In this document: piece after piece, positions 5,411 to 23,285 of the stretch
Layout of the letters: each line of letters opens with the position of its first letter
Position numbering within the stretch: position 1 is the first letter of the stretch
Origin: an uncultured Nitrososphaerota archaeon
Lineage (GTDB): Archaea; Thermoproteota; Methanomethylicia; Culexarchaeales; Culexmicrobiaceae
Length of the DNA stretch: 64,000 bases
Direction of reading: 5' to 3'
Assembly: GCA_964462875.1 (NCBI GenBank)
Contig: CAYWZQ010000001.1
Span: 132,910 to 196,909 of the forward strand
Translations under genes and position numbers: made by a program
Notes under the pieces: generated by a model
Databases searched by the model: none
What the model was told of the DNA's origin: nothing
What the model saw: the letters and a program-made list of their open reading frames with translations, nothing else

Positions 5411-5507
5411 TCAGATAAAACTATAACTTGCAAAACAAAATATTTAGATTGGCTATGAGGAAGAACTCGGGTACTGAGCGCTAAGTGATGATAAAAGAAG
5501 CTGAGCC

Positions 5508-5802: not shown

Positions 5803-5868
5803 AATATCACCGAAGCAGAATTCCAGAGAAACAGATAAATATTTTACTTAGGGTAAGCAGTCTAAGTT

Positions 5869-6271: not shown

Positions 6272-6394
6272 TAACCCATCTCCAAGTTATTTGATTTCAA
6301 ATACTATGCAGAGAGTATTTAAGGATTTCGAGGCGGCGAAAACTACACAATACTTAAATAATGCGGATGAATGGATAAACACGCCATTTGAGAG

Positions 6395-6712: not shown

Positions 6713-6720
6713 AGAAGACC

Positions 6721-7523: not shown

Positions 7524-7572
7524 TAAAATATGCTAGCATGAGACAATTAAATTTATTCCTCCAATCAGCAAC

Positions 7573-8466
7573 TTAGGTGAACGATAATAGGCTTTTCGCC
7601 TTAGTATCAATTTCACGTCTATACTTAGCTATCAACTCCGGATAGTTCTCGACAGTTTGCATATTCTCCTCCAAGCACTTCAAGTACAGCTCTCCCGCTT
7701 TAGAATGAAGATTGGATAATGCCTCGTGAAGACGCTTCCCTATCTCAACTGCACTACTACAAGTTGGCGAGCATGGTATGAAGCCGCTCACAAAATAAGC
7801 ATATATACTTGGGGAACCGCCAGTTAGCTTTAACTCTTTAATTTGCCTCGAAGCCCTCTCCTCAACATAAACATTAGAACTCCTATCCTCAGCATATCTA
7901 TTAACACAGCACTCCGGATAGCCCAGAACCTTTCCAAGCTCAGCAACATAGCTCTTGGATAGCTCCTCGGGGTAAACTAGCAATGAGGGTGGAAGAGTTA
8001 GAGGCCTCATTGCCAATATGGCCCTCCTAATTTCCCGCCTAACTTTAAAAAGCTCCTTTAACTTCTTATGAATGCTTGAATCCCTGAATAAAAACACTTC
8101 ATAAATGCTTGGTCTAACCTCCTCAACAACCAATTTCAATCCAAATAGCTTCGCCCACTCTTCATGTGCCTTAAAGATTTCAGACTTGAAAACATACTTT
8201 TTGAAGAGCTTCCTAATCTTATTCCTGAGCTTAACTATCATTTCACCTCTTAAACTCAAGTCCCTAGTACTCATGATAAGCAATAAATCCTTCTTGCACT
8301 CCTCATCAATCATTTTACCAATTTCACTTGCATTTGGAAGCTCAGCGGGAATAGTGAAAAATGAGCAAGGCCTAACTTCAAGGTACACCGATAAATAGTC
8401 TTCAAGCTTAACTTTAGTGAGCATTCTACGATCATTAATAAAGTCCTCTATTATACCCATCAGCAC
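7573..8466 (-). CDS. hypothetical protein with GYPECC / CSPTC cysteine motifs
   Basis: 297 aa, conserved-looking GYPECCVNRY motif. Family not securely recognised. Confidence 0.3.
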   Translation of the reverse strand: MLMGIIEDFINDRRMLTKVKLEDYLSVYLEVRPCSFFTIPAELPNASEIGKMIDEECKKDLLLIMSTRDLSLRGEMIVKLRNKIRKLFKKYVFKSEIFKAHEEWAKLFGLKLVVEEVRPSIYEVFLFRDSSIHKKLKELFKVRREIRRAILAMRPLTLPPSLLVYPEELSKSYVAELGKVLGYPECCVNRYAEDRSSNVYVEERASRQIKELKLTGGSPSIYAYFVSGFIPCSPTCSSAVEIGKRLHEALSNLHSKAGELYLKCLEENMQTVENYPELIAKYRREIDTKAKSLLSFT

Positions 8467-8538
8467 ATCACCTTATCTCAGAGACCAAGTTAAATAAGCG
8501 ATAATTTCACTAATAAGGGTTGAGGAAGTAGATGAACC

Positions 8539-8916
8539 ATGAAGAAGCGGAGCAGAATGCCCTCATTTGAAGAGTACTTTGCAGGCTCCATGCTGGCCAA
8601 TGCACCTGGCTGGGCTACAATAGCACTAATGTCCTATCTATATGAAATAGCCCTAATAGGCGAGGAGCTAATTCAAATAGCACTCCTATTTAGCTATGGA
8701 ATTGGCGGCATAATTGGAGCATATCTCGTTGCCAATAAAGCCTATAGAGATAGATTTCGAGTTGGAATAGAAGTGGGCCTCGCAGCATTCATAATAAACA
8801 TGATATTTACAGCCATAGTATTGACATCAATTCCAACACTACACTCCCTTATAGGTTTAGTTGTTGGAGGAGCAATAGGCGGAGTAATATCCGCAAGAAA
8901 ACTTAAGGAACAATAG
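8539..8916 (+). CDS. small membrane protein
   Basis: 125 aa with 3-4 hydrophobic helices and Gly-rich segments. Confidence 0.3.
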   Translation: MKKRSRMPSFEEYFAGSMLANAPGWATIALMSYLYEIALIGEELIQIALLFSYGIGGIIGAYLVANKAYRDRFRVGIEVGLAAFIINMIFTAIVLTSIPTLHSLIGLVVGGAIGGVISARKLKEQ

Positions 8917-8928
8917 CATAAGGAATCT

Positions 8929-11571
8929 CTACCATCGCCTTCTAAAGAAGGAGTCCAAACTCGTGACACCAAGTATTTCATCGAAGTTTATGCCTATAGC
9001 TTCAAGCACTTGCCTGAAAATCGTCTCCATATGGCTCAAGTACTTGCCAACATCTATCTCATCTATCCTAGCTAGCTGAACAGGTTTAACTCCGGGTTCA
9101 CCCTTAACCTTAACATATGAAATTATGTCTCCAGCTCCAAGCTTCTTACCATACCTCTCAAGTAGCCTAGCAGCCTTAACGTGTTGTGGAGTAGTTTTTA
9201 TGTACTGGTTTAAGGGTTTGGAAAGCTTAACTCTAAACGCCAATTCATCAAGCGAAAGCCTATGGTCCCTCAGCTTCCTATAGCAGTCCTGAGCTATAGC
9301 CCTTATCTTCTCCTTAGCCTTCTCAAAGTCTTCAGGAGACTTCACTTCACTTAAAACCTTCACAACATTATTAAATGCAGTTTTCAGAAACTCCGGAGTA
9401 TTCCTCTTCTTACCAACCAACCCCTTAATATCCACTGAACCATCCTCAAATACACCCAAATAGTTCTTCTTAAGCCCTGAGAAAGTCACATACCGATATA
9501 CCTTGTCAACATCTAAATCAATCCTAAACTCCCTTCTAGCCCATTCAACAAGTGCTTTAATTTGCTCCTCACTAGGCTTATAAAGAAATATGCTATCAGT
9601 ATCTCCATATAAGACTTCAACCCCAACCTCCCTAGCCTTCTCAATGGCCTTTGAAATTATGTATCTTCCAAGTGCAGTTGTACTTTCAGCCACTGGTGGG
9701 CAGTAGAGTGGAAAAGCTTCATTACCCATTACACCATAGCTGGCGTTCAATATTACCTTCAAGCCCTGCTGAACAACAGAGTACCAGCTTCTCGTAGCTT
9801 CATCTAGGCTCTTATTCTTAGACATGGGCTTAAACCAGTACACTCTAATATTCCTCAACATGCCTATCAATGTTGATGAAATTCCAAGCTTTTTCCTACA
9901 AACCCAGTGCGGTAGATCTGGAACCCTATTATCCCTACACTCCTTGTGGGGGCAATTTATGGTCTCATAAGACAGATTCCATCGATATAAGACCGATGGA
10001 TATAGGCTTGCGAAGTCCAGAACCGTGACATTGAAATATGCTCCGGGCTTCGGCTCAATAACTATGGCACCCATGTACTTTTTACCCTTAATTATAGCTC
10101 TAGTAACTGCCCCACCCTTAATAGCTAATATGTCCTCCCTCTCAGGTATCAAGTAGTTTCTCTTCCTATGCTCAAAGTAGAGCATATTCTTAATCCAACC
10201 TGAAACACCCTGCCTAGTTACATCTTCCATTGAAAGCTTAGATATCCTCATGAGCAAAATTATGAGCTTCATCACCAAGTCCTTGTCAAACGTTGTTAAT
10301 GACAGTGTTAAGTAGGCATCCCTAAAGCAGTAGGATGCAAGCTCAAAGTAGGTTAGCTCTGCAATAAGCCGATCTAATGGTATCTTACTTATACCTAGAA
10401 GTGCATGTGCAATAGCATCTAAAGTCACATCCTTATACTTATTCCCAAATGCATATACCTGAACGGACTTATTGGAGAAGAATCTGTATAAGTCTATGTG
10501 AATACCAGTAACTATGTGCGTCGACTGCCTACCCAAAATTATTGGAATCTCCCTTCGAGGAATACCAAGCCTAGTAGCCCTATACCTCAAATACCTCAAG
10601 TCAAATTGATCACCATTAAAAGTGAGTATTATGGGGTAGGATGTCATGAGCTTGAAGGTCTCGAGAATCATTTGCCTCTCATCATCAAAGAAAAGCACCT
10701 CAACATCACTTGGCAATGATTCTTTAGATCCATACTCCAAATCACCCCTCTTAAGTAGGAAAACCCTCTTCAATCCATCTGAAGCAGCAAAGGCTACACA
10801 TATTACTGGATACTTAGCCTCTGATGGCTCAGGTATCCTATCCGGTTCAGGAGTATAAACTTCTATATCCAGTGCAAGCCTAGGAATATTGGGTGCAGGA
10901 CATAGAAATACTGGAAGCCACTCGTCAAGCATTCTAATAACTTCTTCAGGTTCACCCTCAAAGAACTTCAAAATCCTACTCTTAACATCCTGGGGGACCT
11001 CGTATGGTACGGGCTTTAAATCACCATCCTCAATTTTATAGAAGAGACCTGGAATGAGCTGCCTATCATAAATATAGCAGTTGTGATACTTTATCTTGGC
11101 CTCCCAAGCCTTAGGCAGAAGCTCCCTTATGCTCTTAGGGCTACCTCCAATTGATAATGGGTCCTCAGCAATTATCTTTGACATCTTAACAACTCTATCA
11201 CTCAATGGATCATATTTCTCAACAACTTCAATACGCCTATAACCGGGATGAGTTACCACTGGTAATTTCTTAATTTTCTCGGGAGGCAGATCTGATAGAC
11301 AGTATGGTTTATGACCGGTATTATCATACCAAAAATATATCTTCCTTTTCTCGGGATCATAGAGCTTGCAGAGAGCCTTACCCTTAGAACCATCATATGA
11401 AACTGAAAGCAATATGCATGGACCAGTATTATATGGCTGCTCAACTTCAAAGGGTATTGTCTCTATAACCTCAACTTCCTCTTCTTCAACCTCCTCTTCC
11501 TCACCCTCCCACTCAAACTTCAATTTAGTCTGCCTATACTTCCTAGACCTCTTCATAACCCCCTCCACCAC
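8929..11571 (-). CDS. polB: DNA polymerase, family B
   Basis: ALDIEVYT (Exo I), YGDTDS (motif C), KKRY-like region. 880 aa with acidic N-terminus. Confidence 0.85.
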   Translation of the reverse strand: MVEGVMKRSRKYRQTKLKFEWEGEEEEVEEEEVEVIETIPFEVEQPYNTGPCILLSVSYDGSKGKALCKLYDPEKRKIYFWYDNTGHKPYCLSDLPPEKIKKLPVVTHPGYRRIEVVEKYDPLSDRVVKMSKIIAEDPLSIGGSPKSIRELLPKAWEAKIKYHNCYIYDRQLIPGLFYKIEDGDLKPVPYEVPQDVKSRILKFFEGEPEEVIRMLDEWLPVFLCPAPNIPRLALDIEVYTPEPDRIPEPSEAKYPVICVAFAASDGLKRVFLLKRGDLEYGSKESLPSDVEVLFFDDERQMILETFKLMTSYPIILTFNGDQFDLRYLRYRATRLGIPRREIPIILGRQSTHIVTGIHIDLYRFFSNKSVQVYAFGNKYKDVTLDAIAHALLGISKIPLDRLIAELTYFELASYCFRDAYLTLSLTTFDKDLVMKLIILLMRISKLSMEDVTRQGVSGWIKNMLYFEHRKRNYLIPEREDILAIKGGAVTRAIIKGKKYMGAIVIEPKPGAYFNVTVLDFASLYPSVLYRWNLSYETINCPHKECRDNRVPDLPHWVCRKKLGISSTLIGMLRNIRVYWFKPMSKNKSLDEATRSWYSVVQQGLKVILNASYGVMGNEAFPLYCPPVAESTTALGRYIISKAIEKAREVGVEVLYGDTDSIFLYKPSEEQIKALVEWARREFRIDLDVDKVYRYVTFSGLKKNYLGVFEDGSVDIKGLVGKKRNTPEFLKTAFNNVVKVLSEVKSPEDFEKAKEKIRAIAQDCYRKLRDHRLSLDELAFRVKLSKPLNQYIKTTPQHVKAARLLERYGKKLGAGDIISYVKVKGEPGVKPVQLARIDEIDVGKYLSHMETIFRQVLEAIGINFDEILGVTSLDSFFRRRW

Positions 11572-11777
11572 TTCTCAAACATTCTATCCTTCTTAGACGC
11601 CTTCTTATACATCTTATAATGCTTCTCGCAGAGATAGATCCTCCTAGAACTCGAATCCTTAACCTCCAAGTTAAGCTTAGCCAAATACCTTAACGCCTCA
11701 CTTGAAGCCAAAGATCTAACTGCATGCTCGCTACAACCAACTATACTACACACTTGCCCCTTCCTAACCTTACCCAA
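11553..11777 (-). CDS. small zinc-finger protein overlapping the polB start
   Basis: 74 aa. CSIVGC...CEKHY (C2-CH). Overlaps polB by 19 nt. Confidence 0.35.
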   Translation of the reverse strand: MGKVRKGQVCSIVGCSEHAVRSLASSEALRYLAKLNLEVKDSSSRRIYLCEKHYKMYKKASKKDRMFEKWWRGL

Positions 11778-11840
11778 AGCAATCGCCCAATTAAAAGTCT
11801 ACAACAACATTATTAAAAACAGCGCTCAACCTTGAATATG

Positions 11841-11917
11841 GGGCCCGTAGCTCAGCTGGATAGAGCGCCGGCCTCCGGAGCCGGAGGTCCCGGGTTCAAA
11901 TCCCGGCGGGCCCGCCA
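11841..11917 (+). tRNA. tRNA-Arg (anticodon CCG), CCA encoded
   Basis: GGGCCCG acceptor stem, anticodon arm CCGGC-CUCCGGA-GCCGG, T arm CCGGG-UUCAAAU-CCCGG, encoded CCA. Confidence 0.85.
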
Positions 11918-12337
11918 CTTAAATATCCCCTATATAAGTACTTCTTCTGGTGCCCCCGATAAGTTTTATACTTATGGAACTGCCCCCAGACCATGAGGAA
12001 CCTTGGGACAATTAGGATACTGTGTTCTGGAAGAATAGCAGGCTCACGAGGTGCTACAGCAGCTATATGAGCAGTATGGTAGTGTACGGAAGTCGCCCAA
12101 ATGCTTGGTGTAAGTAAGAGCACTCTACATAGATGCCTAACATGTTATTGTTTATCTTCTGCTTCTAGCTTCCTTACCTCTATTTTCACGTAGCCTGCAC
12201 CATGGGATTTGAAAACGCCAAGTCTTCTAATAAATTTAAGTCTTTCTATTACTAGCTCGCTTATTATTCTCTCTGGATTTCTCCACTCCGTATTCTCTTT
12301 GAGCCATAGGTCTCCTAGCGTTGGACCCTTTAATGGT

Positions 12338-12520
12338 CTAGGCTCTCCTAGCTTGACCCAAGCTAGCTATACCCTTCTCATAGAGCCTTAACGCTAGTTC
12401 TATCCTTAGCCTCTCCTCGAGCTCGCCAGGAGGAACTCGTAGGTTCGCTGGTACCTCAGTAATAACTCGTCTAACACTAGCCTTAACCACCCTTGTCCCC
12501 TCAATGAACACTATACGCAT
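12338..12520 (-). pseudogene. UPF0175-family antitoxin-like fragment (C-terminally truncated)
   Basis: ...ELALRLYEKGIASLGQARRA then stop. Paralog of 14028..14318 but lacks the C-terminal half. Confidence 0.35.
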
Positions 12521-13066
12521 ATTAAGACTATTAATCCCTAGCCACCTCGTAAACGAATCATACTTTTAACAATACTCAATCCATGAACTAGCTGTCCCGT
12601 ATACTAGAAAACGGGTATGAAAAACATACCTAACTGTCCCATTTATCATCAACTTGTGGGATGTTTCCTTATAAGGGCCAGCCTATGAGACCGGAGGTTT
12701 GCTTTGGTAATGGTTTCAGCGGACATGGAATTATAATTACTTTTGGTATTCGCTTTTGTTTTCTCTGAGCGAATGCATTTTAGGATATGGGGAGAGTTAA
12801 GAGGCTCCGTAAACCATAAAACTATATGGTAGAGGAATATGCCTAGTGGCGTTATGAGACTTTGTATATTAAAAATGCTGTTAAAGAACTTATTCGGATC
12901 TAAGAGAGTAAGTGTATCTAGAGGGTACGATGATATATTTAATACAGTATTTTGAGTGAGCAAGGAGAATATACTAGAGGAGGTTTTCAGGGAGAAGGAG
13001 TGGTTCCTAGCTGAAGTAAAGAGTTATGAGATACGATTACTAATAATTTGGAATGAGGTGTAGTTT

Positions 13067-13381
13067 TTGAGTGAAAATATTGTGGTTGTTGAACTTGATA
13101 AGAGGACTATTAGCTTGCTTACTAGAGTTCTTAATAATGAGTATAAGAGACTTCAGCTAGAGTTACGGATAACGGAGGAGAAAATCAAGAGGTTTGAAGA
13201 TAAGTACGGCATGAGTAGTAGTGAGTTCTTAGAGAGGTATGCTCGCGGCAAACTGGGTGACGAAGAGGAGTATATGGAATGGTATGGTGAGCTAAAGTTC
13301 CTAGAGAGGATCCGCGAGGAATTAGAGGAGCTGAAGAATATTGCGGATAGGGTATCTGGAAAAATACGTAACAAGGGTTGA
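13067..13381 (+). CDS. coiled-coil hypothetical protein (upstream partner of the TumE-like gene)
   Basis: TTG start, 104 aa. Overlaps the downstream gene. Confidence 0.35.
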   Translation: MSENIVVVELDKRTISLLTRVLNNEYKRLQLELRITEEKIKRFEDKYGMSSSEFLERYARGKLGDEEEYMEWYGELKFLERIREELEELKNIADRVSGKIRNKG

Positions 13382-13736
13382 AGAAAAACTAAGGGAGCTG
13401 GAGCCTCTAATTTCATCTTCCCAAATATGTATTGAGCGTAGATCCCTCAATAGAATCGTATTAAGAGGTATTATCGTCTTCATAGATGGATCTTCACTTC
13501 ATTTTCTAGAATACGTTCTAGAAGAAGATAATAGGCTGTTAAGAGTCTCCTATCGGTTCCACTATATCAAGCAAGATGGATCGCTAGTCTTCAGATATGA
13601 TAATGCCCCACATCACCCAGAGCTTCCAACGTTCCCACACCATAAACACTTACCTGGAAACAAGACTGTCCCCTCCGGTGAGAAAAGCTTAATTGATGTA
13701 CTGGATGAGATAGGGGAAATTATTTCTAAGGAATAA
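13341..13736 (+). CDS. TumE/DUF6516-like protein (putative toxin-antitoxin component)
   Basis: Signature RYDNAPHHPELPTFPHHKHLPG recalled from the TumE family. Precise start uncertain. Confidence 0.4.
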   Translation: MRIGYLEKYVTRVEEKLRELEPLISSSQICIERRSLNRIVLRGIIVFIDGSSLHFLEYVLEEDNRLLRVSYRFHYIKQDGSLVFRYDNAPHHPELPTFPHHKHLPGNKTVPSGEKSLIDVLDEIGEIISKE

Positions 13737-13876
13737 TGAGTGAGATGCCTAGCAAGGAATGCATTGTCAGTATTACTTCTCAAGTAATAAATAGAACAAT
13801 TCATAAACTATCATTGCCCACTTATTCTTAATGATGATGATTATTACAATTTGGCCTCTATTCGTGAAACCAAGCC

Positions 13877-14035
13877 TTAAACAGCTGCCCATATACTAGA
13901 TAATGGGTATGAATTCCTATCGGATCTGTCCCGATTTACCACGACCCCTGACAACATACTCGTCAAGCCTATCTCCGCAAGTGCTATGATGGCACTAGAG
14001 TTTACTGCAATGCAACAAGTAGACCAGCTACTCAA
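13877..14035 (-). pseudogene. truncated DUF3368 (PIN-like) toxin remnant downstream of UPF0175
   Basis: TTG start overlapping the UPF0175 stop. MSSWSTCCIAVNSSAIIALAEIGLTSML... stops after 52 aa (full length is about 150 aa). Confidence 0.3.
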
Positions 14036-14318
14036 TTCCTAGTTCCTCTCGGAGCTCCTCATCATTATAAGGGTAGGCCGTTATCCCTCTTCTCTGCAGC
14101 TCTAAGATGAAGTCGTAGAGGCTCAGCTCGGCTGCACGCTCAACACTAACAATTCCGCGGACAAAGAGGTCTATAGCATAGGCTAGCTTAACGACCCGCC
14201 TCTTCACCTCTTTAGCAACCTCACTAGCAACCGCATCCAATGGTGGAGAATAATATTTAGGATTTGAAGCGATAGCAGCTAGTACCTCTCTTAATGCCTT
14301 CTCCATCATGTTCATCAC
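14028..14318 (-). CDS. UPF0175 family protein (antitoxin-like)
   Basis: C-terminal VSVERAAELSLYDFILELQRRGITAYPYNDEELREELG matches the UPF0175 pattern. Confidence 0.55.
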   Translation of the reverse strand: MMNMMEKALREVLAAIASNPKYYSPPLDAVASEVAKEVKRRVVKLAYAIDLFVRGIVSVERAAELSLYDFILELQRRGITAYPYNDEELREELGIE

Positions 14319-14568
14319 TGCCTAGACCCTTACAATTTGGTGTATATATCTTACAAGGTTTAAGATTACCTTCTCAGTAAATAGCTATGTAGCTAACATG
14401 ATTCTACATTTAGCCGGTCTACTTATATTTGAACAGCCAATAAAAATGAATGTTCTTGAAAATCTCTCTGCATAATTTTAGCTAATAGAGAACCCTTCGT
14501 GTTCAATTCTTTTACACATGTACTCATATTTCCTCAGGTTATATCTGCTCAATAATTCCTTTTTGAAA

Positions 14569-16113
14569 TTAAAAGAGCATTAGAAACATCGGTGTTGGTA
14601 TGTAGATCATGTCATTACGCAGTCTTAATATATCTCGCGTTAGAACTATCTTACCTTTTTCAGGAACTATATGTGAAGGAGCTCCTCGATACTTTGATTC
14701 AATGATGAATCTATATTGAGCGTTTCCTTTCACAACACATAAGACGAAATCCGTTTCTTGCATTCCTTCTCTTGCTGGTCTATACATTAGAACTCTTTCA
14801 TATTCAACGCTTGGTATATGTTCGAATAACTGTTGAGCTAAAAGAAGATGAGCTGCTACGACACTCTCAACTAAATGACCTTTAAAGCTCGAGTCCCCAA
14901 CTATTTTCTTCGAATACTCAAATGGGTCGGGAATATTGTTGAGATATGAATATAATGCATGATATATGAATGGGTCTAGAACATAGTTCTTAGGCTTTCC
15001 TTGATAATTGGGTTTACAGCTACCATTTTCCCTCTCCTCTGGGTATGCAAAGAAGAATGTCCATGTAGTTCTAAGATAGTCCAGGTAACTTCTTAAACCA
15101 AAACGCCCTTTAGGTCTGGCATCTTCATTGCGACCAATAACCTCAGGTCGACATAGATCCAGAAGACCTGCAATCCTCTTAGGTTCTAAGAGAAAAGCTA
15201 GCACTCTTTTCAAATTCTCTGAGTCTAAACCAGCCTTCTCAGAATCCTTGACAAGTAGTTCCGCTACATCAACATAAAACTCTTTACTTATGTATTCATT
15301 CTTATAATATTCATCTATAGCTTTAGGATAGCCCCCGTGAATCAAGTATTCTTCGAACACTGTTTGGAGAAGTTGGAAATACTCGTCATATATTCTCCGG
15401 AAAGCCTCCGGAATTCTTCCTCGAGCAAGCTCCTTTAGTATCTCGAATCTTATTCTAGGAGTTCTAAGCTTGCGTAATGATAGGAACGAATCTATTTCCC
15501 GCCTAAGTGCTTCAACTACTTCTGCAAATCGTAATGGAACGTGAACTAGATTCCCTCCAAGGTTGAAGAGTTGTGCCAATCTGCCTTGCCTACCTCTTAG
15601 CTTACTAGCAGCCTCTGCCAAGTCCATAGAGTGACTACCAGCAGACACAATCTTCATACGCCCACTTTCAATTAAACCCATGTCATAGAGATTTTTCAGC
15701 GCTTGAGCCCATCCAGGATACATGGATGCTTCATCGAGAAAAACATACTTATCATTATTACTTGACATAGCTATGACTTCAAGAATCTCAATCAGTCTTA
15801 TATCTACCAGCCCTTCGTAGTCGAGTGAAATATAAAATATTGATTGAGGATTCACATTCTTTTCCTCGATGAGATACCTTATGAGGAGTTTAATTAATGT
15901 AGATTTACCTGCACGTCTAGGTCCCCGTATTGTGATTATACCATATGCACCCAGCTCAGCTATGTAACGTCTTAGATGGTAATAGAGTCTGGGTTCACGT
16001 CTAAGCATTGAATTGTAGAAGTTCTGAAGCAACGGGTCACGTTTATACCAGTACTTGTCTATCCACCAAGGATTATATTGCTTTAAAAGTTTCCTAAGTT
16101 CCCCGATGTTCAA
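14569..16113 (-). CDS. AAA+ ATPase, COG1373 / DUF4143 family
   Basis: N-terminal NPWW motif, Walker A GPRRAGKST, Walker B VFLDE. 514 aa. Confidence 0.7.
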   Translation of the reverse strand: MNIGELRKLLKQYNPWWIDKYWYKRDPLLQNFYNSMLRREPRLYYHLRRYIAELGAYGIITIRGPRRAGKSTLIKLLIRYLIEEKNVNPQSIFYISLDYEGLVDIRLIEILEVIAMSSNNDKYVFLDEASMYPGWAQALKNLYDMGLIESGRMKIVSAGSHSMDLAEAASKLRGRQGRLAQLFNLGGNLVHVPLRFAEVVEALRREIDSFLSLRKLRTPRIRFEILKELARGRIPEAFRRIYDEYFQLLQTVFEEYLIHGGYPKAIDEYYKNEYISKEFYVDVAELLVKDSEKAGLDSENLKRVLAFLLEPKRIAGLLDLCRPEVIGRNEDARPKGRFGLRSYLDYLRTTWTFFFAYPEERENGSCKPNYQGKPKNYVLDPFIYHALYSYLNNIPDPFEYSKKIVGDSSFKGHLVESVVAAHLLLAQQLFEHIPSVEYERVLMYRPAREGMQETDFVLCVVKGNAQYRFIIESKYRGAPSHIVPEKGKIVLTRDILRLRNDMIYIPTPMFLMLF

Positions 16114-16370
16114 CTTTTACTACACCTCTTTGCAAGTAGGACCAAATCCTTCTCTATGCGGCCAACCTCTCGTGCCAATTGCTCATACTTCTTCTCAAGC
16201 TCTTTGATACGAGTAATAAGGTCTCCATATTCAGCCTCTCCAATGAATTCTAGAACAAGTCTCTTCACTAGAGCTGGCACCGACAAACCTTGCTGTTCAG
16301 CAATCTTTCTCAGCTTTCCATACTGCTCTTCACTAAGATAGAATTTAACTTGTTTCAACCTACTCACCAT
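16110..16370 (-). CDS. ribbon-helix-helix (CopG/Arc-like) DNA-binding protein
   Basis: 86 aa. KFYLSEEQYGKLRKIAEQQGLSVPALVKRLVLE followed by a coiled-coil tail. 4-nt overlap with the ATPase gene. Confidence 0.5.
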   Translation of the reverse strand: MVSRLKQVKFYLSEEQYGKLRKIAEQQGLSVPALVKRLVLEFIGEAEYGDLITRIKELEKKYEQLAREVGRIEKDLVLLAKRCSKS

Positions 16371-16377
16371 ATCTCTG

Positions 16378-16528
16378 GTACTTTATAGTACCTTAACAGT
16401 ACTAAAATTTAACGCTCTAGTACTACTAAGGTACTAATAACCTGACGCAAAAGCACCATATTAGCACCATTATAGTACTGATCGATTCCTAAGATAGTAC
16501 TATTAAGGTACTATGTATTAAAAAGTAC
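16378..16528. promoter_or_regulatory. array of nine GTAC-core motifs (mostly TAGTAC / GGTAC) upstream of the RHH-ATPase operon
   Basis: GTAC at 16378, 16388, 16399, 16420, 16431, 16475, 16497, 16508 and 16525. About 0.6 expected by chance in 150 bp. Confidence 0.45.
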
Positions 16529-16566
16529 CTCTTATGCCCAAGTCTTGTAGACATATTGTATTCACA

Positions 16567-16752
16567 TTAAGCTTCTTTAAAAGGATTGCCAGTCTTTATT
16601 GGTACGTTTTCATCTGCTAGGAGTCTCAGCAACTCTATAACCCTCTTTAGCGCCTTGGATGCAAACTTTAGTGCCTCATATACAGCCTCCAATGGTATCT
16701 CAAACTCCTCAGCAACCTCCTTAGACTCGCGAAGGGGTGGCAGGCAGTAAGT
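16567..16752 (-). pseudogene. fused remnant of a DUF433 antitoxin-like C-terminus and a DUF5615 PIN-like N-terminus
   Basis: ESKEVAEEFEIPLEAVYEALKFA (DUF433-like) runs into LLRLLADENVP (DUF5615-like start), then a stop. No start for the N-terminal half. Confidence 0.3.
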
Positions 16753-17043
16753 CTAGATGCTAGGGTAGAGGAGCTGAAGAAGAGGTTTGATTTCCTAGGT
16801 CTTTCTAGGGAAAACTCTTAGTTTCAAATCGGATAAGGAAAACTGCGCTTCACCTCACTTACCATAGATTATTACATCCGAATAATCCAGGAAATTAGGG
16901 AACCTATAAGCAGGCCATCATATGCTACATGGGAAGAAGCATTAAAAGTTTTATCTTAGTGCTAGAACCCCTTTGATTTAAACTACACTACTTATTCTTG
17001 CACGAGCTCATATAGGTTTACTAAGTAGATGGTGTAATGTTTA

Positions 17044-17496
17044 GTGATGACTTTGGAGATTGAGAAACTAATCATAACAGTGTTTGGCTCCTACACGGGA
17101 TTCATTAAATGGCTTCAGAACTTGTGTAGCCTCAGAACTTTCTGGACTAAAAATGTAAAGCATGTTGGCATTGCTTCAGTCAACCCATTGAAGTTAAGGA
17201 TTCTATGGAAGACTAGGCGTGGCTGTAGACAAGCATTCTTCATGATGTCTAGTAGATTTAGTCAAGTTGCTAGGTTATTGAAAGAAGCTGGGGGTAAGCA
17301 GAGCATGAAAGATAACACATGTTACATAGTCATAACGACATCTGGGCTAAACTCATGCCTTTACGATAGGCGGAGTGTTATCTATGTGTATACTAGTGAT
17401 AGTAGACTGCTTGAACCCAATCATAGTGTTGAAGTTGAGGACTACGAGAACCCCAGTGAAAGGGTCTTGAAGGAGGTTGAGACTGTGGAGGCATGA
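17044..17496 (+). CDS. hypothetical protein (doubtful)
   Basis: 150-aa ORF in AT-rich low-coding DNA. No family recognised. Confidence 0.2.
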   Translation: MMTLEIEKLIITVFGSYTGFIKWLQNLCSLRTFWTKNVKHVGIASVNPLKLRILWKTRRGCRQAFFMMSSRFSQVARLLKEAGGKQSMKDNTCYIVITTSGLNSCLYDRRSVIYVYTSDSRLLEPNHSVEVEDYENPSERVLKEVETVEA

Positions 17497-18186
17497 CTAT
17501 AAGTGATATTGTTAAGCGAATACGTCAAGAAGCCCTTAGAAGAGTTGGCGCAGAAATTCAACAACAAATACATGCTGCAAGAAACTACGTTATGCAGCTG
17601 AGACCAAGATTAGAGAAGAGACTGAAATAATTAGTAGCTATAGAGGTTACGAGAATGTAAGTACTAGGATACACATTACATACTAAACATGTTTATCTTG
17701 AAATTACACTATCATGTAATTAAAGCTTTTAATGTATACTGAAACCTAAGTTATACTGTCACGTAATATAAAACGAACATGAAAACCGCATCCATGCTTT
17801 CTATTCATACAGACACTCATAAAGTGAAATGCTCTGAGCCCACGAATTTATGAAGTTACTGTTTGGATTACTGAAGAACAAATCATCTGATTAAAATATT
17901 TATTACAACTTAGAGATCTTGTAGTAGTAAGGCAAGTATCTTGATTAGTCTAGGGTAACTACTTTCCTAGTTTCCCTGTAGATCTCCAAGTCCTCTCTGA
18001 GTTCTTATTTCTTCTTTAACTGTAGCTTATTAATATTACTTGCTAGGTTTCTCTCTTATGTTCTTCGAAAATAGAGTTTTAAAATCACATGACATATGTT
18101 ATGTTAAGTATATTAAAGAAAAATTTAAAATATGAGAAATAAATTGGGATTAGTTAAGAGAAGAAATTGCTATCGAGGAGGTTTAA

Positions 18187-18678
18187 GTGCCTTTCACACC
18201 TTTACATCTTGGACCTGCACTGGCTATAGGATTGCCCTTGAGAAAGCACATTCATACACCAACATTCATAATAGCCAATATAATCGTAGATATAGAACCT
18301 CTCATAACGCTCATATTTAATCTCAATTATCCCCTCCATGGCTATCTACATACACTTATGGGTGCATTTATCATAGGTTTAATTCTAGGTTACTTAATGC
18401 ACTTGCTAGAACGGGTACTTAGTTTATTATGGAAGAAACTACACTTAGTATGCAAGACATCCCTTAACTTGAAGGCATTCATTATAGCAGGTACTTCTGG
18501 AACCATATTACATGTTCTTATGGACTCACCGCTTTACTACGACATAAAACCCCTATACCCCATACCTATAAATCCATTTTATAATCCCAGGTTAACCGTC
18601 ATAATTTATGAGACATGCATATTCATGGGCATACTAGGACTACTATATTACTTCTACCTAATAATCAAGGGCAGTTAG
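18187..18678 (+). CDS. membrane protein, possibly DUF457-like membrane-bound metal-dependent hydrolase
   Basis: MPFTPLHLGPALAIGL..., several conserved His (HGYLHTLMG), 4-5 TM helices. Confidence 0.3.
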   Translation: MPFTPLHLGPALAIGLPLRKHIHTPTFIIANIIVDIEPLITLIFNLNYPLHGYLHTLMGAFIIGLILGYLMHLLERVLSLLWKKLHLVCKTSLNLKAFIIAGTSGTILHVLMDSPLYYDIKPLYPIPINPFYNPRLTVIIYETCIFMGILGLLYYFYLIIKGS

Positions 18679-18890
18679 GATAAAGTTTTCATATTGCTCA
18701 GCACCATTAAGATATCATTATTCAATTGAAAACCCAATTTTTATCTAACTACACTGAACATGACTTTAGCTATGTGACTATTAGAGTTGCTTAATGGGAT
18801 CTATTACGCTATTATTAATCACGTTAGCTATATTTGTTGGAGCATAGCGCATATAATCGGGGAAAGATATTGGAACTGGAAAGGTTTTTG

Positions 18891-19382
18891 TTAGGGTTCT
18901 ATATCAAAGGAAATTTCGAGGAGTTGTTTTGAAACTCTAAATCTCGTTTTCCTTATTTTGATGCAGCCTATGTATTTTGACGAGCTAGTATGTCGTTTAT
19001 TGCATGCATTTATATTCCATATACTACCATCAGTATCATAGACAATCACTATACTCAGCTCTCTAATATGCTCCGGTACTGGAAATAGATCGTAAATTAT
19101 ATTTCCATAGATCCTCTCAGCCTCATCCCTCGGAAGAACTTTAACTTCAATTTTAAGATCCTCCTCAATCTTCCTATTTGCAAGCTCCTCAATAGCTCTA
19201 ATCTCATCCGATGTTGGTTTTCGATTAAATTTAACAGTTAAGCGACCATGCTTACCATGCACATAAGTACTTGCAGTCCACATAGCATCAGAACCGAGAA
19301 CCTTGACAACAGCACCCTTAAGCACATGCAGAGCCGTATGGGTGCGCACCTCATCAGGATACACATCCACACAGCCAGACAT
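18891..19382 (-). CDS. alaX: alanyl-tRNA editing protein AlaX-S
   Basis: [20 protein letters not shown]...[13 protein letters not shown]...NACNKRHT...IKIRKTRF closely matches Pyrococcus AlaX-S. Start moved to the internal ATG; the track ORF extends to 19502 with an implausible hydrophobic leader. Confidence 0.7.
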
Positions 19383-19508
19383 AGCTCCACTAACAACGAC
19401 ATACGCTCCTTCAAATAAAAAAGTTTCCAAACCTCTATCAACAGTAAGAAGCATGGAAAGCAAAATTAACAAGTAAAGGAGAATGGCGAGCGCTGATGCC
19501 ATTAAGAT

Positions 19509-20564
19509 CTAATCTTCAACTTCCCGTTGAATACTCAAAGAATATTTATACACTAAATTCCCGTCAATCACATATAAGTCAGCATTATAATCATCAATTC
19601 TCCTCATTAGTACTGGCCTACCTAATCCCTCAGCTATTTTCCTTAAAGCATCAATACCATCAACATCAACCACCATGCTACTAGCCTCATCAATCGGAGA
19701 TCCACCAACCTCAATTAAGTAATCCCTTAAAGGCTTCACTACAGAATCAACAGTCTTCCTAGAAAACTTCCGCCTATCAGAGACGTAAATATAGGTTGCA
19801 GGGGCTAAGCAGAATAGGCCGACTCCTAAAACTACATATGAAATATTAAGCTTATTCCTAACATCTTCATTAATAATAATGCTCTTACCAGTAAGTTGCC
19901 CAGGCGCTCTATGCTCCAAATTTAAAATATTAATTACTCTATCACCAGCACCGTGTCTGAAATTTAACCTCAATGTATGATTAATTGGTAATCTAATCAT
20001 ACCATGCCTTGTAACTGATAAGGCAATTATATTGGCAATTAAAAGTAGATCGTGCTCACCCGAATACACTTCAATTTCATCCTCAATATTCCTGATTAAG
20101 GACAATAATTTACCAATATTAAAAGTAAAGTTCTCATTTATTACTACGGTATTATTACCCTTAACATTAAACTTAGGAGTAGTAAGAATAGTTTTCCTCC
20201 ACTTACCGGGGGATACTATGACCATTTTAAAGCTATAAGTTAATACTGTTGATGCAGGTTCACTAACCCTAAATGTAAAGCTATAATTTACATCAATAGA
20301 CCTAACTATGCTTAGGAAAAGTACTCCCTCGCCGGGGCCGAGCATGCTCGCATTATCATAAATTATGTTAGGAATTAAGTGAGCAACATAATTATACCGA
20401 CTGTAGCCTTCATAAGTACATAAAACACGAACTTTCTCCTCAACAACCGGCTCATTAAACAGCATTACAAGCGAAAACGCTGAAGAAGCTATCAGCGCAA
20501 TTGACAGAAGCAATAGAACTACGAACTTAATTTTATTATTTTTAGATAAAACCATGCACCTCAC
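19509..20564 (-). CDS. bitopic membrane protein (N- and C-terminal TM, extracellular glycosylated domain, cytoplasmic tail) in the TasA/SipW-like locus
   Basis: 351 aa. TM near residues 12-35 and 240-260, many N-x-S/T sequons. Confidence 0.4.
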   Translation of the reverse strand: MRCMVLSKNNKIKFVVLLLLSIALIASSAFSLVMLFNEPVVEEKVRVLCTYEGYSRYNYVAHLIPNIIYDNASMLGPGEGVLFLSIVRSIDVNYSFTFRVSEPASTVLTYSFKMVIVSPGKWRKTILTTPKFNVKGNNTVVINENFTFNIGKLLSLIRNIEDEIEVYSGEHDLLLIANIIALSVTRHGMIRLPINHTLRLNFRHGAGDRVINILNLEHRAPGQLTGKSIIINEDVRNKLNISYVVLGVGLFCLAPATYIYVSDRRKFSRKTVDSVVKPLRDYLIEVGGSPIDEASSMVVDVDGIDALRKIAEGLGRPVLMRRIDDYNADLYVIDGNLVYKYSLSIQREVED

Positions 20565-20624
20565 TCCAAAGATACATGATTAAAGGTAGAAGCAAAATTA
20601 GTATAAAAACTTTATGCAACATTT

Positions 20625-21251
20625 TCAGCCTCCCCCAATATTCCAGCTTGAAGTTTCAATAGTCACTGTGAATTTCAATTGATCAATTGAAGTACAGTTC
20701 TCAAATACAAATTTAAATAGTATTGGAAGCTTGCAATTAGGATCCAAAATTCTGGATATGAATATGCTATATGACGACTCATTTAGTGGAAACCTATATT
20801 TACCATAACTTAAATTGCTACATATCTTTTTAAAGTTAAAGCATTTACAATAACTCGTATAAGCCATATAAATCGTCATATAACCCTCATTTCCACCTAA
20901 AATCAAGTCAAATAATATACATCGAACTCTAATAGGCACAGTCCCTACATTCTTTACAATTAAGTAAAGACAGAAATAATCGCCCTCAGAAACATTATAG
21001 CACTCTACTTGAAGCATTAAATCACCAACCCTATCAACTGAACAATAAAAATTACTATTGCAACAACAGCATTTAGAACATGAATAAGCATTATAACATA
21101 TGATCTTGGAATGGGTTGAACCAACTTTTATTATACCCTGTATTTGCATAAAATCCCTCCAGCAACTATATGCAGCACCATTTATCATCAACACGATGAT
21201 CATGAAGACAAAAATGAGCAATAGTCCACGTTGTCTACCTGATCTACTCAC
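20625..21251 (-). CDS. Cys-rich SipW-cognate-type signal peptide protein (third paralog)
   Basis: Signal region LLLIFVFMIIVLMINGAAYSCWRDFMQIQG aligns with the YAHWSDRVTIQG of its neighbours. Shared KNVGTVP motif. CYNAYSCSKCCCCNSNFYC. Confidence 0.5.
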   Translation of the reverse strand: MSRSGRQRGLLLIFVFMIIVLMINGAAYSCWRDFMQIQGIIKVGSTHSKIICYNAYSCSKCCCCNSNFYCSVDRVGDLMLQVECYNVSEGDYFCLYLIVKNVGTVPIRVRCILFDLILGGNEGYMTIYMAYTSYCKCFNFKKICSNLSYGKYRFPLNESSYSIFISRILDPNCKLPILFKFVFENCTSIDQLKFTVTIETSSWNIGGG

Positions 21252-22507
21252 TTACACCACCTACCGAACTTCCTCCTCATCCTACGAGCATAATAGAAAG
21301 CTATTAGAACAGTTATCGAGGCAATAACTATTGAAAGCAAGTAATAACCATGAATAAAGCTGACAATAAATCCAATGCAGCGCTTCAAGTAAATTGAAAT
21401 CCAACCAATTTTAGGAATAACTAACAGCAACTTCCCCTTTACCTGACTCGGATGAATGGGATTGAAATCAATCACCTTATTAGCATCACCCTTAGTTATA
21501 AAACGACCACCCCTAATCTCCATAACTCTATGTAAGGTCATACCGCCATCCGAGAAATACAAAATTACATCGCCGGGCTTAATTTTGCTAGCTGGAACCT
21601 TAACAACAAGCGCTATATCGCCAACATCCATTGTCGGCCTCATACTACCACTCAAAACAACTGAAGGAAAAACACCAAGCAACCCAGTACTCAACCAAAC
21701 AGCAAAAACAAATGCCAAAACAACCACTATGAAACCAATAGGCCTATCCTTACTCCACCCACCTTTAAACTCAATTCTCAAGCCAGCACGCCTAAGAACA
21801 CTTAATGGAATAGCATTATCAATTACAATTAAACTCACAGTCGGGGCAACTACACCTATGAGCGATTCAAGACCCCAAGTCAAATCAGGGAGTATTGGCG
21901 AAAACCATTGAAACAATTTCAATGGAGCAAGATAAACTATTGAGCCTAATGGACCGGAGATAAAAGCTAAGTATGAAGCAAGCAAGTTAACTGCTAAGTC
22001 AGGAAGATATTTGGAACCTAAAAATTCAACAATTGAAAAGGGCTTAACTGGAGGATAAAGCATGCTTATTAAGGCGAAAGTTCTACTATAAAAAATAGAG
22101 ACAATTAAGATAGCTAAAATAAACTTCCTCTTGCCATAACTCCTCAAAATGCAAGACCTAGAAAATTCACTACCAATAAGAGAAGCTGAAATCATCATCA
22201 AATTGAGAATCACGTTAACTGGAGTTAACACAACTGGACTTCGACCGTACTTTGAAAATAAACCACCATCAATTTGCATTATTATTTGAAATAATGATGC
22301 CATTAAAGCAACTAATAAAACATAATTGTTAAAATTAAGTAGTAACTCTCTAAAATCACAAGACCATAAAGCTATTAAAGCTACACTTATCCAGCAAATG
22401 GATGGGAAAAAGTATGCAAAATATCCAGAAGGCTTATAGAGATACATTAAGATTTGAATTGCAATTAAAGCACAAATTAAAGGGACATTCCTATCCATGG
22501 AAAACAC
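21248..22507 (-). CDS. type I signal peptidase (S26, SipW/archaeal type) fused to an N-terminal polytopic membrane domain
   Basis: C-terminal boxes SGSMRPT, GD, HRV, GDAN. About 270-aa N-terminal multi-TM domain and a C-terminal TM. Confidence 0.6.
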   Translation of the reverse strand: MFSMDRNVPLICALIAIQILMYLYKPSGYFAYFFPSICWISVALIALWSCDFRELLLNFNNYVLLVALMASLFQIIMQIDGGLFSKYGRSPVVLTPVNVILNLMMISASLIGSEFSRSCILRSYGKRKFILAILIVSIFYSRTFALISMLYPPVKPFSIVEFLGSKYLPDLAVNLLASYLAFISGPLGSIVYLAPLKLFQWFSPILPDLTWGLESLIGVVAPTVSLIVIDNAIPLSVLRRAGLRIEFKGGWSKDRPIGFIVVVLAFVFAVWLSTGLLGVFPSVVLSGSMRPTMDVGDIALVVKVPASKIKPGDVILYFSDGGMTLHRVMEIRGGRFITKGDANKVIDFNPIHPSQVKGKLLLVIPKIGWISIYLKRCIGFIVSFIHGYYLLSIVIASITVLIAFYYARRMRRKFGRWCK

Positions 22508-22571
22508 CCCAATGGTGTTTAATGTAAAAAATAGGGAAAATAGAGGGTACTCTAAGCATCGGCTAACACTC

Positions 22572-23270: not shown

Positions 23271-23285
23271 CAGCCACTAGCCCGT

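Follow-up and report, generated by a model that had tools for sequence, protein, structure and literature searches.

Directly behind a tRNA-Arg(CCG) gene, the 64,000-nucleotide stretch of archaeal DNA analysed here (the window) carries about 5 kb of broken toxin-antitoxin (TA) and accessory genes, which raises the question of whether these genes were inserted and, if so, by what kind of element. An initial annotation, made from the sequence alone, saw in them the eroded remains of an old element integrated at a tRNA gene, or of a defence/TA island there. That reading is supported here and refined to a row of small cassettes: we put the probability that the region is an eroded tandem array of small non-autonomous integrative cassettes at tRNA-Arg(CCG) at roughly 0.6, and the cassette looks to be of a type undescribed so far. 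Independent assemblies (L002 and L086) match the window.

Synteny at the tRNA-Arg(CCG) gene

The tRNA gene ahead of the island was confirmed by ARAGORN and Rfam, and the comparison with relatives that the initial annotation had proposed favoured insertion. In the closest relative (L003), whose PolB is 86% identical to that of the window, homology ends at 11922, 5 nt past the tRNA, and returns at 19544; the site holds one RHH-PaREP1/HEPN gene in 1.2 kb, against 7.6 kb in the window. In all three relatives compared (L003, L004 and L005) homology breaks off at 11917-11922, and three different cargos follow the tRNA, L004 having other genes and a truncated tyrosine integrase at the same tRNA, and L005 a 3.5-kb stretch bordered by a partial tRNA copy. 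The island genes are absent from all 80 PolB loci fetched from other genomes. Like a genomic island, the region begins where a tRNA gene ends (3′) and is missing in close relatives; on these comparisons we regard it as a real insertion. A metagenome scan with the 74-aa zinc-ribbon gene adjoining the tRNA returned two loci only, neither of them new, and an exact-protein look-up of that gene led to a second sample in which the island begins identically, and to no variant lacking the island. The features of the region are as follows.

11841-11917 (+): tRNA-Arg(CCG), array anchor (Rfam 70.9 bits)
11918-12574: cassette 1 remnant, chimeric (HTH_50-like pseudogene plus UPF0175 half)
about 12039-12193 (+): HTH_50-like pseudogene, frameshifted (PF18024 E 2e-8 after frameshift repair)
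12338-12520 (-): UPF0175 antitoxin gene, N-terminal half (PF03683 E 7e-9, profile 4-41/75 only)
12575-12728 (+): repeat unit U1 (nhmmer; alignment to other units)
about 12729-13867 (+): cassette 2, TumA/TumE, genes at 13067-13736
13067-13381 (+): TumA, intact (NCBIfam TumA 2.6e-10)
13341-13736 (+): TumE, intact (Pfam TumE PF20126 6e-25; NCBIfam TumE 7e-22)
13868-13937 (+): repeat unit U2, first ~70 nt of arm only (nhmmer, blastn)
13942-14318 (-): UPF0175 and PIN fragment, whole stretch
about 13950-14035 (-): DUF3368 PIN toxin fragment, ~28 codons, cut off at U2 (alignment to L096)
14028-14318 (-): UPF0175 antitoxin gene, intact, 96 aa (PF03683 E 8e-11)
14569-16514 (-): RHH and AAA_14/DUF4143 ATPase module, discrete (Pfam, PADLOC, repeats)
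14569-16113 (-): ATPase (AAA_14 E 6e-23; DUF4143 E 5e-8)
16110-16370 (-): RHH (RHH_7 E 2e-7)
16527-16752 (-): DUF433/DUF5615 cassette remnant (homologues, tblastn)
17044-17496 (+): truncated gene, N-terminal 142 residues of a ~250-aa GNAT-family protein (homologues, tblastn)
17497-19508: rest of the segment missing in L003
within 17497-19508: 45-aa ORF
17631-18186: 556 nt at 30% G+C
18187-18678 (+): membrane protein, 163 aa
18891-19502 (-): AlaX-like editing protein (NCBIfam alaS/AlaXM editing-domain models)

Erosion goes on past 17043, where the truncated gene at 17044-17496 has 12 matches in a representative search. Its full-length relatives measure 246-259 aa and carry the GNAT domain in their C-terminal half (residues ~145-240 in P0094, P0097 and P0099); tblastn found residues 1-142 only in the window, the acetyltransferase half being absent. 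The variable segment possibly extends to 19508; 17497-19508, which may be island cargo or ancestral flank, has no homology to L003, L004 or L005, and a profile search of this part found no repeat units of the kind described below.

That the region is native and was lost in the relatives is a reading to which we give almost no credence, even though base composition showed no anomaly (G+C 40.0% in the island, 41.3% in the whole window). About 1.8 kb within 11918-17043 is non-coding, close to the 2 kb first estimated, but its AT-richness is only mild (37% G+C). The distal membrane protein and AlaX-like genes bear no insertion mark, and in L019, a Bathyarchaeota MAG, a distant homologue of the former (36% identity) lies 2.5 kb away from PolB. 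Against a native origin stand the exact break at the tRNA 3′ end with three cargos in three relatives, the att-like units in the island, and the same cassettes at other tRNA-Arg genes in other genomes; for 11918-16752 these refute it, a refutation that does not cover 17497-19508.

Gene remnants and the RHH-ATPase module

All five gene remnants named in the initial annotation proved real by Pfam, NCBIfam and homologue alignments. The truncated UPF0175 copy, a partial PF03683 match, follows the 93-aa homologue that L096 retains intact over residues 1-49, at 90% identity, and then ends. At the nucleotide level 12345-12651 is 88% identical to L096 4673-4367, the match stopping at 12345; the L096 counterpart is an intact UPF0175-DUF3368 pair, and the PIN gene is absent from this first copy in the window. 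The second UPF0175 gene is intact and is followed by a truncated DUF3368 PIN gene within a 52-aa ORF (13877-14035, minus strand), which has no match in Pfam and whose residues 9-28 align to the N-terminus of the intact L096 DUF3368 PIN protein (BLASTP E 7e-4 and 7e-3 against L096 DUF3368 N-termini). Neither copy of the UPF0175-DUF3368 pair in the window has both genes intact.

The TumE/DUF6516-like pair was identified as TumE and TumA by Pfam, NCBIfam and PADLOC, where it also matches PDC-M44A/B. The small TumA gene stands ahead of the DUF6516/TumE toxin domain, as in the TumE-TumA family, and the two genes overlap by 41 nt. The PF20126 match lies above the Pfam cut-off; unlike reference TumE-TumA, the window pair scores under the NCBIfam equivalog cut-offs (TumE 77.6 bits, cut-off 90; TumA 40.3 bits, cut-off 100). 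The family has been validated experimentally, neutralisation of TumE toxicity by its partner having been shown in E. coli for proteobacterial members only (PMC10584680). The cassette has 80-81% nucleotide identity to those of L087/L091 and L096, and 83% protein identity.

The fused DUF433/DUF5615 remnant was recovered by homologue search and tblastn. Its DUF433 part (16636-16719, minus strand) corresponds to residues 45-72 and is 96% identical to intact DUF433 proteins, and tblastn with the intact L096 pair placed residues 1-35 of DUF5615 at 16527-16632, joined to DUF433 by a frameshift; the rest of both genes is missing. A homologue search with the DUF433 remnant returned 18 DUF433 proteins (86-96% identity, E down to 2e-7), and the stretch has 80-83% nucleotide identity to L087, L096 and L097. 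A second TumA-like remnant at about 16745-16820 (+), hinted at by 16-23-nt repeats, gained no support from tblastn. Three cassettes of the window recur in arrays elsewhere, at 80-88% nucleotide identity. Like the type II TA families TumE-TumA, UPF0175-DUF3368 (PIN) and DUF433-DUF5615 (PIN-like), they have the expected order, sizes and overlaps; unlike these families, two of the three other pairs here are truncated.

The RHH plus ATPase operon, likewise annotated correctly, matches RHH_7, AAA_14 and DUF4143. Three copies of the palindrome TAGTAC-N7-GTACTA at 16385-16514 are likely operators. In L098 the two-gene module and its upstream repeats are 80% identical to the window, with limits exactly at 14569-16514, and in L099 the module is 74% identical. 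The ATPase matches PADLOC PDC-S01 (E 7e-21, model positions 24-305 of 412), PDC families being candidates only, without demonstrated defence function. Related RHH-ATPase operons stand among TA pairs, Mrr and pAgo genes.

A repeat unit with a tRNA-Arg 3′ part, and arrays on other contigs

Searches of the window for a tRNA duplicate with up to three mismatches, by repeat finding and by blastn-short picked up nothing except another tRNA gene, the intron-bearing Arg(GCG); it took a profile to reveal the decayed copy in the window. An nhmmer profile built from L087 copies only, with the window left out, located U1 at 12584-12698 (E 4.5e-15), and U1 was aligned to 11 units from three other contigs. 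Its arm of ~100 nt contains two TGTCCC motifs, GGGAT(G) in inverted orientation and a TATA-like CTTATAAG. Behind the arm, at about 12676-12728, the tRNA-Arg 3′ part is present as a decayed copy, which corrects the earlier statement that no att duplication was seen. Aligned to the tRNA half, the decayed half has a score of 3; random windows average -16.4 ± 4.7, and only 3 of 3000 reach that score. The copy stands inside the island, and no such copy turned up at the outer border, whose position is not defined. U2 was found with the same profile (E 7e-11) and with an arm-only profile (E 5e-12), and matches units of L087, L093 and L096 by blastn; its hairpin part and tRNA-like core have been lost by deletion. 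Only these two units are detectable in the window and nothing past 13937 is bounded by units, so that other routes may have brought in the RHH-ATPase module, the GNAT fragment and the AlaX-like region.

On four other contig sets, intact arrays are divided by a unit of ~150 nt into cassettes of 1.0-2.2 kb. The unit consists of an arm of ~90-100 nt, conserved across distant hosts, and a ~50-nt copy of the tRNA-Arg 3′ part. In the arm, TGTCCC/GGGACA motifs occur at three spaced positions, together with a TATA-like TATTTAAG; the sequence from the anticodon stem to the CCA end (11864-11918 in the window) is copied into every unit, as judged by nhmmer with the core part of the unit profile. Among themselves the units are 63-95% identical over 140-160 nt. 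It is very improbable that the unit is a functional RNA or expression signal (a tRNA-like RNA, a 3′-half gene or a promoter/terminator block) and not a recombination site. A TATA-like box does lie ~10 nt upstream of the core, and the two least decayed units score 30.6 and 33.4 bits with the Rfam tRNA model, just over its threshold of 29; real tRNAs, however, score 64-74 bits, the units have no 5′ half, cores decay freely, as in U1, and genes point either way relative to the unit. RNAalifold predicted only a 6-bp hairpin in the arm, with little variation and almost no covariation, and folding of the arm is therefore no more than putative. Rfam at a permissive threshold found only tRNA-likeness in L096. 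One partial tRNA copy is called as a tRNA in L091 by ARAGORN and Rfam, and another in L096 by Rfam.

The five arrays hold 3-7 units each and all stem from metagenome assemblies, with independent assemblies concordant for L087 (JGI and NCBI) and L088/L091 (ENA) and for L093 (NCBI) and L094 (ENA). Their cargo comprises TumA/TumE, UPF0175/DUF3368, DUF433/DUF5615, AF2212/PIN and similar pairs, whose genes face either direction, and unit orientation within arrays is strictly uniform, as in the seven units of L091. In L096, tRNA-Arg(TCG) is followed by four cassettes, each closed by a unit, and then a core gene. In L093 (MAG S9B2_HD70, whose PolB is only 54% identical to that of the window) the order is tRNA-Arg(CCG), DUF433/DUF5615, unit, MJ0235-like/TumE, unit, a pair of 79 and 111 aa, and a core gene. 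L092 has TA pairs beside tRNA-Arg(CCG) and no detectable units.

Cassettes are common to several arrays in differing orders, and one cassette recurs with the same limits beside different neighbours: TumA/TumE is 80-81% identical in the window, L091 and L096, its neighbours differing in L091. The DUF433 stretch is 84% identical in L093. The TCG-anchored L096 array has inner units with CCG-type cores, which we count as movement between loci. L089 and L091 are 94-98% identical save for one cassette and one unit (L091 4968-6184), so that an array of small cassettes differs between strains, as in integrons and CALINs; the junction falls in the terminal ~22 nt of the tRNA-like core, within shared identity.

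The arrays might be real and yet have been built and reshuffled solely by host homologous recombination between the ~150-nt repeats, the core serving as a homology patch. This could explain the one-cassette polymorphism and the shuffling without a dedicated enzyme, and is consistent with the identity among units, with a junction in shared identity and with the failure to find a recombinase at the array loci. We nevertheless consider it quite unlikely: conservation of the TGTCCC/GGGACA arm across distant hosts suggests protein binding and not neutral homology, orientation is strictly uniform, and a first insertion into an empty tRNA gene would still need a circular donor with a core.

Integrase searches, related systems and a proposed mechanism

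The initial annotation had seen no integrase, and this held in Pfam annotation within ±10 kb and in a motif scan of the 64 kb. At the array loci, too, neither precomputed Pfam annotation nor Pfam scans of the sequences nor the motif scan revealed an integrase; for tyrosine recombinases, the motif scan of the window and array loci gave false positives only, L004 excepted, and a homologue search with the L004 integrase fragment returned only itself. A candidate integrase remnant at 16527-16752 (PF16795 E 0.013; BLASTP to the L004 fragment E 0.04) was rejected, the stretch being 86-96% identical to DUF433 proteins; against PDB and NCBIfam it gave generic helix-turn-helix or coiled-coil matches only. 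Four scans of viral contigs with the unit junction, arm and tRNA core gave no matches, one pattern fitting a variant core only. These searches revealed neither a recombinase nor any circular form or replicon bearing attP.

An alternative is that conventional elements with an integrase of their own, one or a few proviruses or plasmids, integrated into the tRNA gene and then decayed until only the addictive TA genes and att scars remained. Archaeal tandem integration of tyrosine-recombinase elements into tRNA genes, with later integrase loss, is documented (review PMC8371274; examples PMC6563490), a truncated tyrosine integrase survives at this tRNA in L004, and truncations are many in the window. 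We hold such decay to be unlikely, because none of the five arrays retains an integrase fragment, cassette size is uniform (1.0-2.2 kb), one cassette keeps fixed limits beside different neighbours, and the same arm stands beside the core in all units, which unrelated elements decaying independently would not leave. The idea of gene capture following integrase loss reportedly goes back to She et al. in 2001.

A tandem array of cassettes in the window resembles both tRNA tandem integration and integron arrays. As in archaeal serial integration, insertion takes place in the 3′ part of a tRNA gene, which recurs as direct repeats at the borders, several insertions occur at one tRNA and the integrase may be missing; those elements are, however, multi-gene, 2.6-98 kb long and integrase-defined (PMC6563490), whereas here 1-2 kb hold a TA-like pair only, one conserved arm recurs in all units and no array has an integrase remnant. 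Integrons and CALINs are bacterial and archaeal cassette arrays with attC sites (PMC9668308, PMC7923331); they share with our arrays the arrangement of small cassettes in rows, mostly with one operon per cassette, a single recombination site at one cassette end and shuffling between arrays, and CALINs also the lack of an integrase beside the array. Unlike them, our arrays are anchored in a tRNA gene and show no IntI or attI, nor any tyrosine recombinase in the window or array loci, and the unit is a tRNA-derived direct repeat with a 6-bp hairpin and not the long imperfect palindrome with R and L boxes of attC, a distinction drawn by consensus and RNAalifold. TA cassettes are frequent in chromosomal integrons too. 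CIMEs are integrase-less att-flanked elements that accrete beside ICEs and IMEs in Firmicutes. Our cassettes are likewise att-flanked, without recombination genes of their own, in tandem at one site and presumably mobilised in trans, but CIMEs belong to bacteria, arise by decay of ICEs or IMEs, exceed our cassettes in size and carry varied cargo, and have no shared unit of arm and tRNA half.

Under the favoured reading of an eroded cassette array, each cassette would be 1-2 kb with one TA-like gene pair in either orientation and a ~150-nt attachment unit at its end. In a site-specific reaction, the tRNA-like core of a circular cassette would cross over with the 3′ part of the tRNA gene, restoring the tRNA and leaving arm and core at the cassette's far end, with a putative recombinase acting in trans. 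Repeated events would stack cassettes, the newest adjoining the tRNA, and recombination between cores would remove or move single cassettes; addictive TA pairs may favour cassette retention. The array in the window would be old, with the U1 core decayed, the U2 core lost and three toxin or antitoxin genes truncated, and later disrupted by deletions and by the 1.95-kb RHH-ATPase module, which would have taken the place of the DNA between U2 and DUF5615. What remains intact is TumA/TumE, one orphan UPF0175 gene and the RHH-ATPase operon. Short of even odds, and only tentatively, we suggest an undescribed class of mobile element in hot-vent Thermoproteota: a minimal, integrase-less TA cassette with a protein-binding arm and a tRNA-Arg 3′ half, which a recombinase acting in trans would insert serially into tRNA-Arg genes, giving arrays that would serve TA and defence genes as integrons do and move between distant archaea.

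Alone, the window is a worn copy, unremarkable without comparison. Better-preserved arrays occur in other hot-vent archaea, with cassettes gained or lost singly and no integrase gene nearby. Partial tRNA copies in such arrays can be annotated as tRNA genes, a practical warning. Three features make the proposal testable: a putative recombinase-binding arm marked by TGTCCC repeats, a crossover region that one junction puts in the last ~22 nt of the core, and a unit profile usable over all archaeal genomes. Archaeal genomes are rich in toxin-antitoxin pairs whose spread is poorly understood. The arrays point to a tangible means of transfer, in the form of cassettes that possess a defined recombination site, accumulate at a tRNA gene and pass singly from lineage to lineage.

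The locus downstream of tRNA-Arg(CCG)

The window comes from an archaeal metagenome-assembled genome (MAG), and its sequence was also found in ENA ERZ27248328 contig k141_230903, in Logan SRR7051321 and in an NCBI contig. The initial annotation had proposed that an integrated element or toxin-antitoxin (TA) island, now eroded, lies at tRNA-Arg(CCG), in 11918-17043. Comparison with relatives supports this proposal, as homology to the window breaks between 11917 and 11922 in each of the three nearest genomes by PolB identity (L003, 86%; L004, C. cathedralense, 84%; L005, C. thermophilum, 73%), Candidatus Culexmicrobium MAGs among them. Alignable nucleotide sequence in L003 covers 5367-11922, stopping 5 bases beyond the tRNA, and picks up again at 19544, where a conserved 351-aa gene ends; the gap holds 1.2 kb in L003, with one RHH-PaREP1/HEPN gene. 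In L004 the break at 11918 is followed by 4.5 kb of other genes with a truncated tyrosine integrase at the end (PF00589, E 8.5e-10), and in L005 the break falls at 11917, with a partial tRNA copy in the same orientation 3.5 kb away. None of the window's island genes was found in 80 PolB loci fetched from other genomes, and the tRNA-proximal part of the island was identical in a second sample (L086). Sequence comparison marks the 3′ end of tRNA-Arg(CCG) as an insertion site.

Features of the locus in the window
8929-11571, minus strand: PolB, first in the local gene order
11553-11777, minus strand: 74-aa zinc-ribbon gene, between PolB and the tRNA
11841-11917, plus strand: tRNA-Arg(CCG)
12338-12520, minus strand: truncated UPF0175 antitoxin, N-terminal half (Pfam profile positions 4-41 of 75)
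13067-13381, plus strand: TumA, paired with TumE
13341-13736, plus strand: TumE, paired with TumA
14028-14318, minus strand: UPF0175, intact
14569-16113, minus strand: AAA_14/DUF4143 ATPase
16110-16370, minus strand: RHH gene
16527-16752, minus strand: DUF433/DUF5615 remnant, from a search of a large protein collection
17044-17496: truncated GNAT-family gene

All five gene remnants reported previously were matched by domain or homologue searches. The truncated UPF0175 shares 90% identity with an intact 93-aa homologue over that protein's residues 1-49, and TumA/TumE belongs to a family of translation-targeting TA systems (PMC10584680). A 52-aa ORF after the intact UPF0175 had no match in Pfam, and its residues 9-28 align to the N-terminus of a DUF3368 PIN protein (E 7e-4). 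The fused DUF433/DUF5615 remnant was borne out by 86-96% identity to DUF433 proteins of 79-85 aa at their C-terminus, with a frameshift into residues 1-35 of the partner DUF5615; the same identity rules out an archaeal integrase remnant, to which this stretch had a weak match. Non-coding DNA within 11918-17043 sums to ~1.8 kb, against ~2 kb first estimated, and its AT-richness is only slight (37% G+C, against 40% for the island and 41% for the window). Erosion extends past 17043: the GNAT-family gene covers only residues 1-142 of a protein whose full length is ~250 aa.

The L004 recombinase fragment (L004:4969-5418), at the distal end of the variable region next to the tRNA, covers PF00589 profile positions 76-158 of 172 and has a single matching cluster in a collection of 5.8 billion proteins. 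Beyond the island, the window and L003 share a conserved cluster (19509-23400) encoding the 351-aa protein, which has a weak DUF5305 match, followed by proteins of ~208, 416 and 231 aa with hydrophobic N-terminal segments. Relative to this cluster the L004 and L005 neighbourhoods are rearranged, with ArgRS and a UPF0020 methyltransferase in between.

Cassette arrays and their repeat unit

The lead to better-preserved arrays was a locus encoding an intact DUF433 homologue (L087; full contig L091), which carries DUF433/DUF5615 together with TumA/TumE, the latter 81% identical at the DNA level to the window's pair. This contig repeats the 3′ ~50 nt of tRNA-Arg seven times in direct orientation, with a conserved ~90-nt element in front of every copy. 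Successive copies are spaced 1.0-2.2 kb apart and enclose one gene pair in either orientation. We refer to the ~150-nt repeat of arm and tRNA-like core as the unit, to a 1-2 kb segment with a TA-like gene pair closed by one unit as a cassette, and to a row of cassettes as an array. Further arrays were found on other contigs, including L096 and L093, the latter from MAG S9B2_HD70, which has a PolB just 54% identical to that of the window. The arrays agree between independent assemblies.

Cassettes of L087/L091 and order of the L096 and L093 arrays
L087/L091: 79-aa gene and PIN_2
L087/L091: TumA and TumE
L087/L091, two copies: DUF5678 and aspartyl-protease-like gene
L087/L091: AF2212-like and PIN, with Rce1-like gene
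L087/L091: DUF433 and DUF5615
L096, from the anchor end: tRNA-Arg(TCG), GNAT gene, UPF0175+DUF3368, unit, tRNA_edit with DUF3368+UPF0175, unit
L096, continued: TumA+TumE, unit, DUF5615+DUF433, unit, glycosyltransferase gene
L093: tRNA-Arg(CCG), DUF433/DUF5615, unit, MJ0235-like+TumE, unit, 79+111-aa pair, core gene

A nucleotide profile built from the L087 copies alone was scanned against the window and matched at 12584-12698 (U1, E 4.5e-15) and 13874-13941 (U2, E 7e-11). U1, refined to 12575-12728, comprises a complete arm and a decayed tRNA half, whose alignment to the true tRNA half beats 2997 of 3000 random windows; the initial annotation, in which no att duplication was found by eye, is corrected on this point. 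In U2, refined to 13868-13937, the arm survives only in its first part, and the scan found no unit past 13937 in the window. The consensus of 12 units from 4 contigs contains TGTCCC twice, an inverted GGGACA and a TATA-like TATTTAAG, after which follows tRNA sequence from the anticodon stem through the CCA end. Fold prediction gave a 6-bp hairpin only, with almost no covariation.

The freshest units are called as tRNA: L091:9431-9508 by ARAGORN as tRNA-Arg(CCG) and by Rfam at 33.4 bits, and L096:6714-6780 by Rfam alone at 30.6 bits; genuine tRNAs score 64-74 bits on the same scale. Cassette arrays give rise to false tRNA annotations, and partial tRNA genes left behind by integration are a recognised annotation problem (PMC9897764). 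The copy bounding the 3.5-kb variable stretch in L005 (L005:6021-6070) has anticodon GCG, not CCG, lacks the conserved arm, and is an att scar of a different kind from the units.

Elsewhere in the window, a second tRNA-Arg, with anticodon GCG (28989-29083, minus strand), has ~29 nt inserted between its D arm and anticodon stem, the exact point at which the att-like core starts in the tRNA-Arg(CCG) units; it was missed by ARAGORN and by Rfam at the gathering threshold. A 109-nt tRNA (45493-45601, plus strand; Rfam 54.9 bits), also missed by ARAGORN, presumably contains an intron.

Wear and replacement in the window

Since three cassettes of L096 are matched in the same order in the window (12345-12651, 88% identity; 13016-13740, 80%; 16528-16721, 83%), the window appears to be an L096-like array in worn form. 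Of its first cassette, half an antitoxin gene survives, joined to unrelated sequence that holds a frameshifted HTH_50-like pseudogene. From mid-U2 to DUF5615 codon ~35, the sequence is replaced by 2.6 kb containing the PIN stub, the UPF0175 gene and the RHH-ATPase module. This module is discrete: a related locus (L098) is 80% identical over exactly 14569-16514, three palindromes upstream of the RHH gene included. Neighbours of related copies are TA pairs, an Mrr-type nuclease and a Piwi-domain gene.

The palindromes (TAGTAC-N7-GTACTA; 16385-16404, 16418-16436 and 16495-16514) all fall within the L098 identity block, and one sits between a TATA-like box and the start codon. They are probably operators through which the RHH protein would regulate its own expression. 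The RHH-ATPase operon of a relative (L099:14187-16621) has a Piwi-domain (pAgo) gene ~5 kb away and adjoins a Mrr_cat nuclease gene and two UPF0175-DUF3368 pairs, a typical defence-island setting.

Evidence for cassette movement and relation to known systems

Several comparisons provide evidence, at the level of sequence, that cassettes move one at a time. Contig L089 is 94-98% identical to L091 and lacks exactly one cassette and one unit (L091 4968-6184); its hybrid unit takes the arm from one neighbour and the downstream flank from the other, and the two join within the final ~22 nt of the tRNA-like core. In L091 the TumA/TumE cassette sits beside other neighbours than it does in the window and L096. 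The L096 array is anchored at a TCG tRNA, and its inner units have CCG-type cores. A dedicated, hypothetical recombination enzyme may act on the arrays. Homologous recombination between units may instead account for the reshuffling. No integrase gene or fragment was found in the window, as initially reported, or in any array locus. Neither unit nor core was found on viral contigs.

Towards the outer border, a 163-aa membrane protein gene and an AlaX-like gene (18187-19502) may belong to an ancestral flank that L003 has lost. The AlaX-like protein (18891-19502, minus strand), with HxxxH and CxxxH motifs, is of the aminoacyl-tRNA trans-editing type and lies in or beside the TA array; a YbaK-type tRNA_edit gene within an L096 cassette (L096:5323-5778) is a second trans-editing gene associated with such arrays. 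The two might counter tRNA-directed toxins.

Tandem integration at archaeal tRNA genes and integrase loss have been described (PMC8371274; PMC6563490), but the elements concerned are multi-gene and integrase-defined, whereas the arrays here consist of 1-2 kb TA cassettes without an integrase. Their cassette-array logic is shared with integrons, archaeal ones included (PMC9668308), which use IntI and attC sites, neither of which was seen in the arrays. A search of the open-access literature found no account of 1-2 kb TA cassettes arrayed with boundary units made of an arm and a tRNA half. The finer structure of the window is that of an eroded, integrase-less cassette array, and its interest rests on the family of arrays reached through it, not on the worn copy itself.
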